DNA of 52,178 nucleotides, from the NCBI GenBank assembly GCA_030615175.1, contig JAUWZX010000003.1, positions 1 through 52,178 on the forward strand, in the 5' to 3' direction. This DNA comes from Candidatus Parvarchaeota archaeon. GTDB taxonomy: Archaea > Nanobdellota > Nanobdellia > WJKC01. Position numbers: made by a program. Below are positions 21,001 to 27,000 of this stretch, in pieces (the stretch's first letter is position 1; each line of letters begins with the position of its first letter).

Positions 21001-24000
21001 CGTTATCAATTATTATACTCATTAATGATATTTAAACGTTATTAAAAAATAAATAAGTAAAAAGAATTAAAGTTTAGATTTCTATGCTCTTATGTAGTCT
21101 CTTGCTGGCTCCGTACGCTACTGCCGTTACTAATGAGACTATTGCTGACGTTAGCGTGTAATGTATTAGTGCCATGAAGAATACTATTATTGCTGATGGC
21201 ACTCCTGTCGTCATCATTTCAGCTATTGTCGTGGCTTCTGCTGTTCCCGTTAGTAGTCCTGTTACTGCTGACATTATTGGTTCTATCAGGAATATTGCTA
21301 GTGTGCCAATCACGAGTCCCGCTATTAAGCCTAGTATTCCTGCTACCAGCATCATCTCTTTAAGGTCTTCTCTTAAGTCTTTTGCCGCTAAGAACGCTGC
21401 TATCCCGATTATTATTGTTAACATTTTTTATTCACTTCCGTCTCCTCACCAATGCGTAAGTTATTAGGCCTATTATGGCAAGGATTATGATGATGATTAT
21501 GATGAACGTGGTTGTTGTTATGCACGTGCCGAGTATGTTTATTTCTCCTTCAGTGCATGCTGTTGGGTTATCATCTACACAATTTGTTATTGGGTAGTGG
21601 TAGCATAATTCGCCTACGCATTCATCTGTCGTGCATGCGTCACTGTCATCGCAGTCAGAGTTAGTTCTGCATTCAGGCGTGGGTTCTATGCACTTAATGC
21701 TTATTGAGTCGCATCCGTAAGGGCATGCTTTTCTTTGATAATTGCATTGTGGCACTCCACTAATTACTGTGCATTCACCGTTAATTAATAAGTAGTATCC
21801 TTCTGCGCTACACTTGTCTGGGCATTGCATTCCGTCGCATGGGTTCGGGCAGTCACTTGGACAGGTTAAGTAGTTCTCATCTGCCTCGCAATCACCATTA
21901 CCACATTCAGTTATCGTGCAGTAAGGTATGTCTTCAAGAGTGCAGGTTCCCCATCTGCATATGTATCTCTTGCATCCTACTTCGCCTGAGCATGTGCTGT
22001 GTACGCCTTCTAGTGGCGTGTAAACGCATTCGCAGGTGGCGTAGTTTACTGTTTCATAGGTGCATGGGTTCCCGTCATCGCATCCGCTTGGTGTTTTAGT
22101 GCATACTGGTGCCGGGCAGTCTGCTGGGCAGTTTTCATAGGTTTCTCCTTCCCCGCATATTCCGTTATCGCAGTATTCTACTGGCGTTATGCATGTTGGC
22201 ATGGCTCTACAGTATTCTATCATTAGATCACATTCTTCTGGGCATGTTCGTGATATGTAAATTTCGTCTAAGCCGCACATTTTTTCTGCGCAGGTGCCTA
22301 GAACCCAGTCCGAGCATAAGCAGTCAATGTCGCAGTAGTATAATTCCAAGTGTTTTACTTCAGTATAGCGTGTGATGTAAGCTTCTCCTGGAACTAAGAA
22401 AATTTCTTCTTCGAAGTAGTAGTTTTCATCGAATACGACTAGGGCGCATCCTCCCCTGACTGTTGATGGGCAAGTAATTATTTTTCTGTCGTAGGGTGGA
22501 ATTGATCCCCATTCTTCAGGGAAGTCACTGCATAGGAATCCTCCAACGACTGTTAGTGGGAATACTCTGGTCCATGTTAGAGTGTCTTCTATGTACTTGC
22601 CGAAGCATGTGACGTGTGGCACCCCATCCTTTATTTCGTAGTGTTCTCTTATCGTGCAACCGCCTGATAGTACTGGTCTAGTGACTGCTTTAATCACGAA
22701 GTACCCTACCATTAATGACGCTATGAGTATTAATGTTGTGAATATTACTTTTCCTCTGGTGGTTTTAAGCCATTTTGGTATTTCTATTTTCATTTATGTA
22801 ATCCTCCTTGTTCTATTATGTGTGTCGTAATTAATAAGTTTTCCATGTTTTTTACGTGCCGGGAGGGGAGTCCAATATCCGGAGGAGATGGGTATTAAGG
22901 ACTTGCTTTTTAAGTATGATTTCATTTACGGCCTCCTTTCCTAGCTTCTTTTATTTCTTGCCATATTATGTACCCTATTCCGAATGCTGTTGATGGGCCA
23001 ATAATCCATAATATTATTCCGAATCCTCCTGTTCCTATTAATCCTAGGATGATTATTAATAGCCAGTTAGTGAGTACGAACCATACAACGTATCCCGCTA
23101 GTGCACCCACTAAGGCTCCGATGATGTATCCTTCAACTCCTAGTTTTGATAGCCTGCCAATTAGTAATGCAATTATTGAACCAATGATTATTGCTAATAT
23201 TATCTCGTTAGGTATTGGTGTCCTGCTACTGCACACTCCGTTAATATCTGTTAGTCCTGGACAGCAGGCCTTGAATATTGTTGGGGTTTCACCATCTTGA
23301 GCGCAAGCGATTACTCTGCTCTTGCAGTATGCTTCTCCTGTTTCCCTGTAACCGCATACCTCGTCTGGCTCGCATATATCTACTAGGTCATCTGCGCTTC
23401 CGAATGGATTGCATTTATAAACCTCGTTTCCCACGCATACCCACCTGTTTGCTTGGCATACTCCTAATGGATTGCATTTTGCGGTGAATGTTCTTGAGTC
23501 TGTTCCGCCTACTGATGAGGCCGTTACCGTGCAGGTTTGCTCTGCGTAAGCTATGGTATCGCAGTATATTGGCAGGTTGAATGTGTAATCCATTCCAGGG
23601 TCTATTGTTTGTGATTGAGTTGCTCCGGCCCTGAATGGTTTTGGACAGGTTATGTAAGCGTCAAAGCCTTCTCTTTCATCGCCTATGTTCTTAACTATTG
23701 CTTTAACTTTTGCTTCTTCTTCACCTGAAATCATTGTGTCCATGTAAGCGCTTGTTACTTGTGGCACTCCTATTGGCTGGTATATTCCTAGCCAGTCCGC
23801 TCTTACGTAGAATATGTATGTTGGGATGCTTATGAAAGTGCTTAATTCTCTTATTACTACTCCCTCTGTTAGGCTTGCTGGGCTTTCAATGCCCCCAAAT
23901 GGTATTGGAGTCATTGCAGTATCCGCTGCCGTGTTAGTGCCATCGTAGGATTCTTGTATTCCCGCCCTGGTTATTGGTAATTCACCAATCTTCCCTATTA

Positions 24001-27000
24001 GTACATCGTATTTAGTTAAGTGATCTCTGTAGAAGTCATCGCTTATTATTCTCCAGTTGCCATCATAGGCTGATTTGTATGGGTCTTGGCTTGTGCAAGT
24101 TTCAGCTGTTGGTTTATAACCATCCCATTTAACGTAAACGTTATCCCTGAAGTCACCGTATGGCCCAACGTAGCCTCTTATGTCTGCATGAGTGTCGAAG
24201 TCTTTGCTGAATGTTTCAACGCCATTAGTGACGCTGATTGTTGACATCGTGTGTATTTGAGGGCTGTCAATGCTTCCTACTGGGTAATAAGTTATTTCTT
24301 CTATGCAGAAGCATGCTAGTTCAAGGTAGTATTTTCCTTGACCTATTAAGAATCCACTCACGCAGTGTTGTAGTGCTTCTTCTGTTGAAGGCACCCATCC
24401 GCAAAGCCATTCAACTTTGTTTAATTTAGTTATTGGCCTCCTAACTCTTTCTTTAAATATTATTGGGTATTCGCAGGTTTGCCGGCCGTAAGTAATATCT
24501 ATTTTGAAGTCTCTTTCCGCTGGTATTCCTGTTTCTTCATCTATCTCTGTTGAAGTAACGGTTCCAGTGGCGTATTGACTCATTCCTCCTTGACTAACGT
24601 ATAGTATCCATTGCTTGCCTGTGAAGAATGGGCTTGTTGAAACGAAATCAGCTTTGGTTAAGCTTAGTGTTGTGAATCCTGAATAACTTGATAGTAGTGA
24701 TGTGAAAGCGAATCTGGCTGGCGTAAAAATAATCATTAATGATACTGAAGCAACTAATGCTACTAGAATTAATACTTTACTCCTCTTCGTAATTATCATT
24801 ACTCACACCTATTTGGTTCTCTTCATGTTCTTGTGTGCTTGGTCATTTTATTAAAAAAAAAATAAAAAAAATAATAAAATTTTATTCAAATCTTGTTTAT
24901 GTCTTCTGTCCGACTATAATGTCTGCTTCAATGTCTGCAACGTCGCCAGTAGTCTTTCCTTCTATCTTAACTTTGTAGATTGCTGCTGGTGTAACATTAT
25001 GGTTAGCTGCTAGGTCTGTTGACTTAATTTCTATGTCAAGTATGTACTTGCCTCTTTCTATTGGAAGATCGTATGACACGTCTAGTTCTCCGTCTTCTAT
25101 GTCATCACTAAAGTCTGTTAGTTTGTCGCATTCCCTGTACTCGTATAACTTGACTGAAGTAAGCGTTAGGTTAGTTACTATGGTTCCTGCCACTTCATCA
25201 ATTGTTATGTCACTTAATGCTTCCATGTCGCCTCCATCAATTTCAAAGTATAATGGAGCTTTCTTGAACTGACTGTTACCAGTGAAGTTTGTCATTGTAC
25301 CGTTTCCAGTCCACTTGTCATTTGTCGTGTCTTCCCTGAATGCTTGTGATTCAATGTCTTCTGCGAAGCATTCTTCCGTGGTTGTTAAGAACGCTACTGC
25401 GTCAAATTCTCCGTCGTACTCAACTGGAACTACTGGTATTACTGCTGCTATTGCTGCTGATACTCCCCATATTGCTAGTACAATTCCTAGTATTGCTGCG
25501 ACTGCGATAAACAAGACCGCCCACACATTTATTGCTGCTTTCCTATTCATTTTTAATTCACTTTTTTCTCCTAATTTTTAAAGTGCCCTCCCGGCACTTT
25601 ATTTAAAGGGTTTGACATTTTAGTAAATGTCGTAGTATTCTGGATGGTTTAGGGGTTTATAAATGGTTAGAAGGAGTAAACTTGTTTTTAGTTACTTGCC
25701 AGTAGTGGCTTTCTTATAGTTTTTATAGGATGTTATAAATGCGATGGTAATCATTACCGTTGTTATCAAACTGGTTGTGAAAGGGAATTGTTCAGTAATA
25801 TTCAACAACATGTTAGTAAACTCGAAAATAGTTAATGGAATAATAACTATTAAAGCAATGATTGTTGAGAATAAAGTTAGTAATTGAGGGTTGCTCTGCT
25901 GAGAATTATTTTGTGGTTTATTCTTTAAGTCACTTATCTCCTTCCTTACTTGCTTTATTTCCTTAACTATCTTCTTACTTGACTCTTCTGGCGTGTAACT
26001 CTTAGTCTCCTTTGCTAGTGGGAAGTAGAATACTGTTCTTAAATCCTTATTCTTGATTAATTCCTTAATGCTGTCTGGAGCGTCTTCAAGTTTCATGTCA
26101 TGAGATGTCTTCTTCTCTATTAATCCATGCTTAAGCATTGTATTAAGTATTCTTGAAATCTTTGTTTCATTAATGTTCAAGTCCTGAGCAAGTACTTTAC
26201 GATAATGGTTGCCCTTACTAATTGAATTCCAAACCCCGTAATAATTGCCTTTAAGTGAATACTTATCCTTATCAGGATTAATAACATAAGTTACCGCTAT
26301 TCCTCCTCCATCAGTTAACTCCTTCATTACACCAAACCCTTTACGTCAAGCTTACATTAATTTCTTGCGGTATCATTAATGGCATGACTAAACCGAAAAA
26401 TAATAATAAACCAAATATTAAGATTAAAAATGGTATGACCCACTTCCTAAAGAAATTAGTAAATCTTTCAGAACCCTTCAATATTAATGAAATGAATCCA
26501 ATGAATAATATTAACTGAAGAACTGACATGGCTGAATTCATAAATAACTTTGCTTGGTCTGGGAATGTTGGAGTAATAATGCTAGTAATCCATGATGATA
26601 AACCCCAAGACATGCCCCATGAATAACTGAAGAATCCCACAATCTGATTAAATATTGCTTGCCCTGACTCAACACCAGTCAAGTTACCAGTTAAGTTAGT
26701 AAGAGTCTCATTCAATTCATTCATCCCCCTGCCGTTGCGTTAACTGTTTGAGTAATGATTAAGCCTGAAAGATTTAATGACATCATTAAAACTAAACCCA
26801 TACAGATTAAGAATATTGACGTAATGAGATTGGACCAGTACCTAGAGCGACGTATCAGCGTCATTACTTTCTGAAATCCTTTATTAAGATAATCCCAAAT
26901 AATAAAAATACTCAACCCAATTAGCATGGGGAAGAAAAATAACGCTAAATGATTAATCAATAACGGTATTGGGGTATGTGTTGCTACAAAGTTTAAAATC

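Follow-up and report, generated by a model that had tools for sequence, protein, structure and literature searches.

The closest described system is that of archaeal Fusexin1 (Fsx1), a cell-fusing protein whose action in mammalian cells was bilateral and which is encoded in mobile elements of more than 50 kb with a HerA-like ATPase (PMC9259645). Trusted archaeal fusexin placements have so far been limited to haloarchaeal integrated elements (IMEs), which carry XerC/D, HerA, VirB4 and TraG/VirD4. Moi et al. also reported in 2022 Fsx1-bearing MAGs in all major archaeal superphyla, although these were doubted as misbinned, and their Supplementary Data 1 already holds similar non-halophilic metagenomic sequences (PMC9259645). 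The survey's statement that fusexins had been tied only to haloarchaea and unplaced contigs therefore overstated the novelty, even though those authors distrust the other assignments. The haloarchaeal pR1SE / apHPV plasmids are replicons of about 50 kb without capsid or conjugation homologues, with many membrane proteins and a HerA/VirB4-like ATPase as the proposed DNA loader, and they spread in plasmid vesicles; the paper on them contains no word starting with "fus" (PMC10818511). Pleolipoviruses, including nanohaloarchaeal ones, transport DNA in an envelope without a capsid, possess an ATPase and a fusion spike, and are known from DPANN hosts (10.1101/2025.02.15.638363), with the spike having a non-fusexin fold (PMC9259645).

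The window analysed here is the entire 52,178-bp contig C4 from the Nanobdellota bin G000 (Table 1). Judging by profile and model comparisons, its intact 625-aa reading frame at 22,922–24,799, with zero internal stops, is a member of the class II (fusexin) membrane fusogen family, belonging to the non-halophilic branch of the Fsx1 family. The sequence alone gave no match to PDB sequences at E ≤ 1, and against HAP2 only domain III is detectable (Pfam HAP2-GCS1, E 0.0033, under the cut-off, as in the survey), while a profile built from 141 relatives aligned with residues 12–496 of PDB entry 7P4L (Fsx1) at E 5.1e-63 and with three HAP2 entries at E 6e-5 to 2e-3. The AF2 model (pLDDT 87.6) has 7P4L as its best Foldseek match (E 1.1e-29), followed by HAP2/GCS1 (PF10699; 5OW3, 6DBS, 5MF1; E 5e-19 to 1e-14) and then by viral class II proteins (E 7e-12 and weaker) and EFF-1, with which it agrees in the domain I-II-III architecture. 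Close relatives carry PF28161. The match to NCBIfam NF053506 (E 3.4e-18, 65.4 bits) misses the equivalog cut-off of 650 bits, which places the protein outside the narrow equivalog but within the wider Fsx1 family of Moi et al.; close full-length relatives likewise fall under the cut-off of this narrow model. Both the fusexin identity and the mobile-element setting claimed earlier are borne out.

Approximate domain limits are 40–340 for domains I–II, 342–445 for domain III and 446–495 for domain IV, with the alignment running through domain IV of 7P4L. Like Fsx1, the protein has a predicted N-terminal signal region (hydrophobic helix at residues 7–25 by hydropathy and model), a helical hairpin of domain II formed in the model by two long helices (254–271 and 278–295) and a predicted C-terminal anchor with three TM segments at 533, 559 and 582 according to hydropathy, all of which the survey had described; the model adds a fourth helix at 601–620, so that the membrane helices together cover 531–620. 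Three cysteine pairs, C146/C165, C385/C423 and C448/C463, correspond in the profile alignment to C125-C155, C389-C432 and C457-C477 of Fsx1, and C385 and C423 in domain III are invariant in 16 close relatives and would form a disulfide. The candidate domain II tip loops are WLCGWV (131–136) and YYLEL (157–161), the latter being hydrophobic and placed at the tip by its alignment with Fsx1 residues 143–148 rather than by coordinates. Differences from Fsx1 include an identity of just 16–17%, 20 cysteines versus 8, an extra 4-Cys module at 499–523 ahead of the anchor, an ectodomain charge of −24 versus −67, a shorter and more hydrophobic candidate tip (YYLEL versus SVTSPV) and a non-halophilic host. 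Unlike HAP2 and the viral class II proteins, the C4 fusexin possesses domain IV and several TM helices.

Table 1 Features of contig C4 (strand as in the contig; "." for the contig as a whole).
Feature	Coordinates	Strand	Remarks
Whole contig C4	1..52178	.	Lacks terminal repeats, tRNAs, CGCG sites and any overlap with other contigs
Short (287-aa) MCM-type helicase limited to AAA+ domain	779..1642	-	PF00493 E 7.8e-18
Small-gene module: 120 aa, CxxC thioredoxin-like 113 aa, 83 aa, HTH 103 aa	2459..4761	-	
Two large predicted exported, C-terminally anchored proteins (599, 713 aa) and 4-TM protein, around TnpB insertion	6514..12318	-	
TnpB-family RNA-guided nuclease	8461..9579	+	NF040570 above cut-off
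LamG surface protein, 2031 aa	13118..19213	-	Local identity of 26–28% to both giant surface proteins encoded on G000 chromosome
Six-TM protein, EExxR / H / HxxxD motifs	20016..20840	-	Motif level only
Downstream membrane-anchored protein, 453 aa, 48 Cys	21432..22793	-	Related Cys-repeat proteins on G000 and G401 chromosomes
Fusexin, Fsx1 family, non-halophilic branch	22922..24799	-	625 aa; domain limits and loops inferred from model secondary structure and 7P4L profile alignment
Upstream protein, 217 aa, N-terminal helix and one Ig-like beta-sandwich, pilin/adhesin-like	24897..25550	-	Single-sequence model, pLDDT 52 (low confidence)
Four small membrane proteins upstream of fusexin block, one with HTH	25692..27831	-	
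LamG membrane protein of 530 aa; second membrane protein with Cys repeats, 399 aa	29529..32320	-	
HerA/FtsK-superfamily ATPase, coiled-coil and HTH tail	33627..35339	-	PF01935 E 2.5e-9; candidate DNA-loading motor
Orc1/Cdc6 replication initiator, 455 aa	44023..45390	-	TIGR02928 202.8 bits vs cut-off 181.3
Second small P-loop ATPase, 279 aa	47984..48823	-	Pfam and PHROGs searches
N6-adenine DNA methylase-like protein, 227 aa	49872..50555	-	PF02384 E 1.9e-11

The one-strand gene array noted by the survey is evident, with 66 of the 69 ORFs kept (out of 124 listed) lying on the minus strand; the coding share is 90%, many of the small genes belong to no known family, and 23 of the 69 ORFs have predicted TM segments. 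The Orc1/Cdc6, MCM P-loop, HerA-like ATPase and TnpB genes were all recovered by profile matches, whereas only one of the reported DNA methylases is of the N6 type, the ORF at 38,702–39,382 coding for a general class I SAM methyltransferase. The Orc1/Cdc6 protein is distant from known relatives (best identity 26–28%), the HerA-like ATPase matches phrog_2666 in its ATPase part only (E 6.8e-22), and the second P-loop ATPase has no match in phage records. The structure search with the 217-aa protein gave generic Ig-like matches (best VIA Z 8.6) and neither a capsid nor an Atlas match. The motifs of the six-TM protein match those of CPBP (Rce1-like) intramembrane proteases; it had no Pfam match, hhalign was negative, and the comparison with the Rce1-like gene adjoining the fusexin of G910 gave a SW z of 3.6. 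On that G910 element, from another bin of the same class, the same four genes of the small-gene module occur in the same order (three genes at phmmer E 1e-4 to 3e-4; all four at SW z 4.2–10.4, with 0/150 shuffles each), the C4 copy being split by an endonuclease-like gene of 334 aa.

No capsid, portal or tail families were found among the 69 proteins of C4 with PHROGs, and no integrase or T4SS channel family among 70 proteins with Pfam; the VirB4 model matched at E 8e-4 across just 46 aa, VirD4 gave no match, and a Phi29_MCP match on a 120-aa ORF is at noise level (E 0.024), a structure model having been made for one unassigned ORF only. Since terminal repeats are lacking, missing DNA could hold a capsid, integrase or T4SS gene, and C4 is most or part of a self-replicating element, probably incomplete. 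With this proviso, it differs from the Fsx1 IMEs in being unlinked, in having Orc1/MCM and in that no XerC/D, VirB4 or VirD4 was found, and so adds a type of fusexin element without detected integration or T4SS genes. By description, pR1SE / apHPV offer a working analogy. None of the PHROG matches of C4 belongs to pleolipovirus families, and C4 is much larger than typical pleolipoviruses.

Full-length fusexin relatives occur in seven other genomes of the same class: element-like contigs hold three of them, a further three lie beside core genes, and one, that of G184, is in an integrase element. The survey had counted matches in three of the 400 sampled Nanobdellota genomes; a full-length match is present in only two, and the other 73 matches (E ≤ 1e-3) are short stretches, nearly all of Ig-like or Cys-rich C-terminal parts. 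No fusexin was found in 40 related genomes, the congener included. The G184 insert is a 14,080-bp element with an integrase and a primase, bounded by an 8-bp repeat, its site being empty in the congeners G487 and G490; no other fusexin was assigned to a chromosome by the empty-site test, and the element shows the chromosomal integration and recombinase of the Fsx1 IMEs. The setting of this homologue is as the survey described, but an M64 peptidase takes the place of the TM helices at the end of the protein, and this lack of a membrane anchor counts against the element-transfer reading favoured below. Similarly, the G368 homologue does lie beside core genes but is missing domain IV, as are all three fusexins in such positions, which form a divergent clade within one family (3 of 336 scored genomes of f25) and whose chromosomal location suggests domestication. 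A motif scan of 185,579 GTDB genomes gave 35 loci, two of them fusexins, both in MAGs labelled Nanoarchaeota, with a pattern chosen to include these two and fitting just 47 of 151 family members.

We lean to the reading that the fusexin serves as transfer machinery of a self-replicating element in which no capsid was found, represented in most or in part by C4, with the Nanobdellota archaeon of bin G000 or a near relative as the probable host. Homology, fold, intact frame and element setting are shown. Beyond these, the fusexin would be exported, its C-terminal helices holding it in the membrane, docking onto a target cell may fall to the many surface proteins encoded alongside it (LamG, Cys-repeat and Ig-like), the HerA-like ATPase may load element DNA, and the hydrophobic domain II tips would insert, followed by trimer formation and folding back, whereby the membranes would merge. 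Delivery in membrane vesicles or enveloped particles made by the element is the favoured route, with about an even chance, and a direct cell-to-cell bridge is a less favoured but credible one. Most likely the fusogen serves the spread of element DNA between cells, and the attachment of the symbiont to its host is independent of it, as the rare carriage points to element cargo rather than to general host-attachment machinery. The bilateral action of Fsx1, on the other hand, fits poorly with the invasion of naive cells.

The best surviving alternative, which we regard as possible but doubtful, is that C4 was misbinned and is an element of some other archaeon in the community, such as the host of the symbiont or a different archaeon of low GC, its fusexin being one more unplaced metagenomic Fsx1, a misassignment of exactly the kind Moi et al. 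caution against (PMC9259645). As the survey conceded, C4 has no sequence link to the chromosome, neither an overlap with other contigs nor a chromosomal flank. Its claim of matching composition holds for GC content and raw tetranucleotide distance, which are in the chromosome range, but not for corrected tetranucleotide correlation (r 0.83–0.85, under all 30 chromosome windows at 0.94–0.98; 0.93 within the chromosome), codon usage (r 0.87 versus 0.95–0.99 for 13 windows) or CGCG (0 observed versus 35 expected, with 46–98 per chromosome window, at or above expectation); the Shine-Dalgarno frequency is 0.19 versus 0.10. No copy of the C4 TnpB was found on the chromosome contigs and no CRISPR array on G000, and the G976 fusexin element is in composition nearer to other genomes than to its own bin. 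Against misbinning, C4 is closer to G000 than G000 is to its congener (about 0.67–0.78) or than any other cross-genome pair tested (0.32–0.68, about 20 hand-picked genomes), which was counted for a G000-type host, although the match is partly circular because binning selects on composition; AGCT avoidance is common to C4 (0.47) and G000 (0.35–0.52), with other genomes at 0.75–1.12. The remaining four contigs have 141-bp ends in common and look like a single, almost closed chromosome (contamination 0.48%), and related elements recur in bins of the same class, the motif scan having picked up none in other taxa. Placement in Nanobdellota is well supported for the family (integration in G184, location next to core genes in three genomes, element-type contigs from four bins); for C4, which likely belongs there, support is moderate and comes from composition only.

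Rather unlikely is an enveloped DNA virus as the identity of C4, its nucleocapsid or matrix protein having gone unrecognised and the fusexin serving as entry spike; this option, which would mean a class II fusogen in a DNA virus of archaea, shades into the vesicle version of element transfer. The one-strand array of small genes, the dense coding, the undetected T4SS and the likeness of the ATPase to a PHROG labelled terminase would suit a virus, as would the complete loss of CGCG, given that viruses under restriction lose palindromes; however, no phage structural families were detected, no fusexins were found in IMG/VR or in 50,697 phage records, Orc1/Cdc6 with MCM is plasmid-like, and the neighbouring 217-aa protein folds, in a low-confidence model, as a generic Ig-like domain.

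That the protein keeps the fusexin fold but acts as an adhesin or scaffold seems improbable: same-class relatives have lost the anchor or domain IV, and both the low identity to Fsx1 and the NF053506 score could be read in this way, but the C4 copy retains all four domains, conserved cysteines, candidate hydrophobic tips and predicted anchors, and the NF053506 model is too narrow even for close relatives. Least probable is a cytoplasmic bridge opened by the symbiont to its host with the element-borne fusexin, a role implied by the survey, for although membrane fusion and cytoplasmic bridges are reported for some DPANN-host pairs, with the proteins unknown (PMC11329633; 10.1101/2023.02.24.529834), and the divergent clade suggests domestication, the fusexin of G000 lies on C4 and not on the chromosome contigs, full-length copies are rare, and domain IV, without which Fsx1 is not fully active (PMC9259645), is missing from the chromosomal clade.

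The host range of fusexins is widened by the chromosomal placement at sequence level in one DPANN archaeon (G184) and by a free replicon that probably resides in a second one, and the low-salt-type ectodomain of the C4 protein is suited to standard fusion assays. Tentatively, Nanobdellota may harbour self-replicating elements that lack a capsid, form a family of their own and travel in membrane particles, entering cells via a HAP2-type class II fusogen, and C4 would be a near-complete resident member; for the hundreds of non-halophilic Fsx1 clusters these elements would be a main reservoir, from which fusexins would have been repeatedly captured into DPANN chromosomes and remodelled by peptidase fusion and loss of domain IV. 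Whether class II fusogens originated in viruses, eukaryotes or archaea is an open question, and such a family, if real, would offer a route from DNA elements to the gamete and viral class II fusogens. It would also provide a candidate fusogen in cells living attached to other archaea: the rarity of fusexins in DPANN argues against a general role, but as the builders of DPANN-host bridges are unknown, any DPANN fusogen is a testable candidate.

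The gene at 22922-24799 on the minus strand has an intact reading frame of 625 aa and is a real fusexin, namely a member of the wider Fsx1 (Fusexin1) family and, judging from its sequence, a predicted fusogen. As a single sequence it matched no PDB sequence at E ≤ 1, and its Pfam HAP2-GCS1 match, located in domain III, is sub-threshold (E 0.0033). The family comprises 528 clusters at 50% identity with E ≤ 0.001 (110 at E ≤ 1e-30), the closest members being 42-45% identical to the window fusexin. The family profile, for which 141 sequences were kept out of 150 listed and the short ones omitted, matched Fusexin1 (PDB 7P4L) with E 5.1e-63 over nearly the entire ectodomain and also, weakly, three entries of the gamete fusogen HAP2. 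The AlphaFold model (pLDDT 87.6) retrieved 7P4L first (E 1.1e-29), followed by HAP2 and then by viral class II proteins and EFF-1, so that the survey's finding of a fusexin is borne out by both the profile and the model. Against the NCBIfam Fsx1 model the protein scores 65 bits and, like all four relatives tried, stays below the narrow cut-off of 650.

In the profile alignment C146/C165, C385/C423 and C448/C463 align with the three disulfides of Fsx1 named in PMC9259645, and the hydrophobic motif YYLEL appears to occupy the position of the Fsx1 fusion loop, with the likewise hydrophobic WLCGWV as the putative neighbouring loop. The ectodomain charge is -24 compared to -67 in Fsx1. The class III (pilin-type) signal is not enriched in the family (31/143 versus 24/143 chromosomal controls).

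Features of the window fusexin, of contig C4 and of other loci
Feature	Position	Description
Window fusexin, hydrophobic helix	residues 7-25	
Window fusexin, domains I-II		beta-rich, two long helices (254-271 and 278-295)
Window fusexin, domain III		Ig-like
Window fusexin, domain IV		Cys-rich
Window fusexin, additional module		four Cys
Window fusexin, C-terminal TM segments		three by hydropathy; fourth helix in the model only
C4, short direct repeat	190-280	two copies of AAGTATAATGGGTGTTGC and part of a third, in AT-rich sequence from the contig start to a plus-strand HTH gene close to MCM; may be an origin or operator
C4, TnpB	8461-9579(+)	also matches Cas12f2, 155 bits, under the cut-off
C4, 2031-aa ORF	13118-19213	first 45 codons (19126-19213) overlap a divergent NUMOD3/HNH gene; true start probably a later Met preceding a signal-like helix
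C4, 66-aa ORF	43611-43811(-)	no Pfam match; by its motifs, we take it to resemble an N4/N6 DNA methylase remnant
C4, R2K-clade ATP-grasp protein	46042-46794(-)	PF14243, E 2.4e-11
G184 fusexin-M64 fusion	G184:C1:769054-771348 (L008:9054-11348, -)	domains I-IV, followed in the same chain by an IgA peptidase M64 domain
Chromosomal clade members	L011:209-1765, L055:11523-13154, L057:12247-13866	45-50% mutual identity
Short exported proteins	L041:1441-2109; L059/L060 (G993:C9:19738-20493)	fusexin-like domains III-IV and anchor only
G000, D5-type primase-like gene	G000:C5:646191-647810	chromosomal, 31% identity to the G184 element primase; possible remnant element in G000

Contig C4 of genome G000, whose full length makes up the window, is a real mobile element. 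The minus strand carries 66 of its 69 non-shadow ORFs (kept from 124 listed), and TM segments are predicted for 23 of the 69. C4 codes for Orc1/Cdc6, an MCM domain of 287 aa and two ATPases, the first of them HerA-like, as well as for TnpB, nucleases of the HNH type, a single protein resembling N6-methylases and several large surface proteins that carry an anchor. Searches with the C4 proteins (Pfam, 70; PHROGs, 69; NCBIfam, 26) found no capsid, portal, tail, integrase or T4SS channel family. The element may be incomplete, since C4 possesses no terminal repeat or tRNA and neither overlaps nor, at the DNA level, significantly matches any of the four other contigs of G000. Four small genes are kept in the same order on the 21.8-kb fusexin contig of G910, another genome of the class (z 4.2-10.4, 0/150 shuffles each); five further positional pairs (599/647, 387/380, 201/303, 102/63 and 453/313 aa) are not significant. 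Weak DNA matches to contig C18 of the congener G401 were set aside, this contig being chromosomal and having only a Cys-repeat protein in common with C4. Rce1-like protease genes adjoin the fusexin in G910 and G794; the CPBP identity of the C4 protein at 20016-20840 remains a candidate drawn from motifs only. The ESM Atlas yielded nothing usable for two C4 proteins of no known family.

A DPANN host of C4 is probable, and it seems rather likely that C4 resides in G000 or in an organism closely related to it. GC content and raw tetranucleotide distance of C4 fall inside the chromosome range (the other four contigs being taken as chromosome), which explains its binning. To this extent the compositional match proposed by the survey stands, but it does not extend to the corrected signature (r 0.85 versus 0.94-0.98 for 30 chromosome windows), to codon use (r 0.87 versus 0.95-0.99) or to CGCG, which is found 0 times in C4 with 35 expected, compared to 46-98 in the chromosome windows. 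Signatures were compared by z-scores, as the zero CGCG count distorts log ratios. At equal lengths, r was 0.83-0.85 with G000, 0.67-0.77 with G401 and 0.39-0.68 with eight other genomes, C4 and G000 being closer to each other than G000 and G401. AGCT avoidance is common to C4 and G000, which ranks first among 20 candidate hosts by composition, a match that is partly circular because of binning. G000 contains no CRISPR array, and the Orc1 and the thioredoxin-like protein of C4 gave no host-informative homologues.

The lack of CGCG may reflect element-specific restriction avoidance. The fusexin element of G976 has one CGCG with 11 expected and no GGCC, and the tested host chromosomes mostly retain CGCG. 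Within G000, the contig pairs C1/C5 and C2/C3 each have identical 141-bp starts and ends, and C2 and C3 start, directly after this repeat, with different restriction-modification cassettes, one including a C5 methylase and a nuclease-like gene and the other two D12 adenine methylases.

The A1 profile of the family found full-length matches in 2/400 genomes of the phylum, 0/40 related genomes, 1/240 genomes in the order of G184, 5/381 in that of G368 and 1/381 in a third order; these samples overlap, and the distinct positive genomes number seven. G521, G993 and G627 gave partial matches, limited to domain III-IV or to domain IV, and were left out of the fusexin count. The survey's 3/400 is reduced to two full-length matches.

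The firmest placement of a fusexin in the class is that in G184, whose genome is one contig of 829,411 bp. An insert of 14,080 bp there contains the gene along with those for a tyrosine integrase and a D5-type primase, and copies of an 8-bp repeat flank this insert at 764,356 and 778,436. In the congeners G487 and G490 the two flanking genes are joined with one repeat copy, confirming the insert of about 14 kb described previously, and in G489 a 668-bp gap separates them. The G184 fusexin has no C-terminal TM anchor; a 281-aa exported Cys-containing protein is encoded closely after it. Element-like contigs bear the fusexin in G910, G976 and G794, and relatives occur on four metagenome contigs amid exported and membrane proteins. 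The G976 element (G976:C24, L051-L053) is a 41.5-kb one-strand array with one gene near both ends, coding for an integrase, a HerA-like ATPase, a C5 methylase, a PCNA-like protein and many exported proteins.

The fusexins of G368, G915 and G777 form a divergent clade lacking domain IV and having one TM segment, on contigs that carry TFS, ribosomal-protein or tRNA-synthetase genes, and are candidates for domesticated fusexins. Their homology is based on hhalign (98.5% to the alignment A2) and A1 matches (E 1e-25 to 1e-34); a profile of the three sequences matched no PDB sequence. A cytoplasmic zinc ribbon is present in two members, next to whose genes lies another gene for a zinc-ribbon protein. 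In the FastTree phylogeny the window fusexin clusters with unplaced metagenomic sequences, apart from this clade; G184 is put with the clade via long branches, a grouping that is not trusted.

No fusexin relative was found in genome contigs with the alignment A3, or in viral contigs with A2, A3, P0001 and two neighbours; a viral motif scan gave two loci, neither a fusexin, and TBLASTN of the window fusexin against plasmid and phage records gave no match. The motif scan of all GTDB genomes gave 35 loci, two of them fusexins in MAGs labelled Nanoarchaeota and already among the seven genomes; it is modest evidence, as the motif was chosen to include these matches and covers 47/151 family members. 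The text of PMC9259645 reports Fsx1 from integrated elements of haloarchaea, numerous Fsx1 genes in metagenomes, freshwater ones among them, and MAGs from "all major Archaea superphyla", with an assignment that is possibly wrong according to the authors; DPANN taxon words were not found in its eight searchable files, and its Supplementary Table 1 may list DPANN MAGs. Literature searches, with subscription journals mostly outside, found no paper assigning a fusexin to DPANN. Support for an extension of the family to DPANN comes chiefly from genomes other than G000.

Beyond the demonstrated fold, anchors, element setting and patchy distribution, a mechanism may be proposed by analogy with class II fusogens and Fsx1, as far as described in PMC9259645: surface proteins would dock, the fusexin tips would insert, and the trimer would then fold back and merge the membranes, through which the element DNA would pass. 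The likeliest carrier would be a membrane vesicle or an enveloped particle, as in what is described of pR1SE-type plasmids (PMC10818511), favoured because no T4SS or capsid was found; a direct cell bridge comes next. As a candidate for the proteins that build symbiont-host bridges fusexin is attractive, but its rarity and location on elements speak against a general role of this kind. For fusexin-mediated transfer of the element, the bilateral action of Fsx1 reported in mammalian cells (PMC9259645) would be awkward for entry into naive cells, and we conjecture that the more hydrophobic tips of the window fusexin might allow one-sided action.
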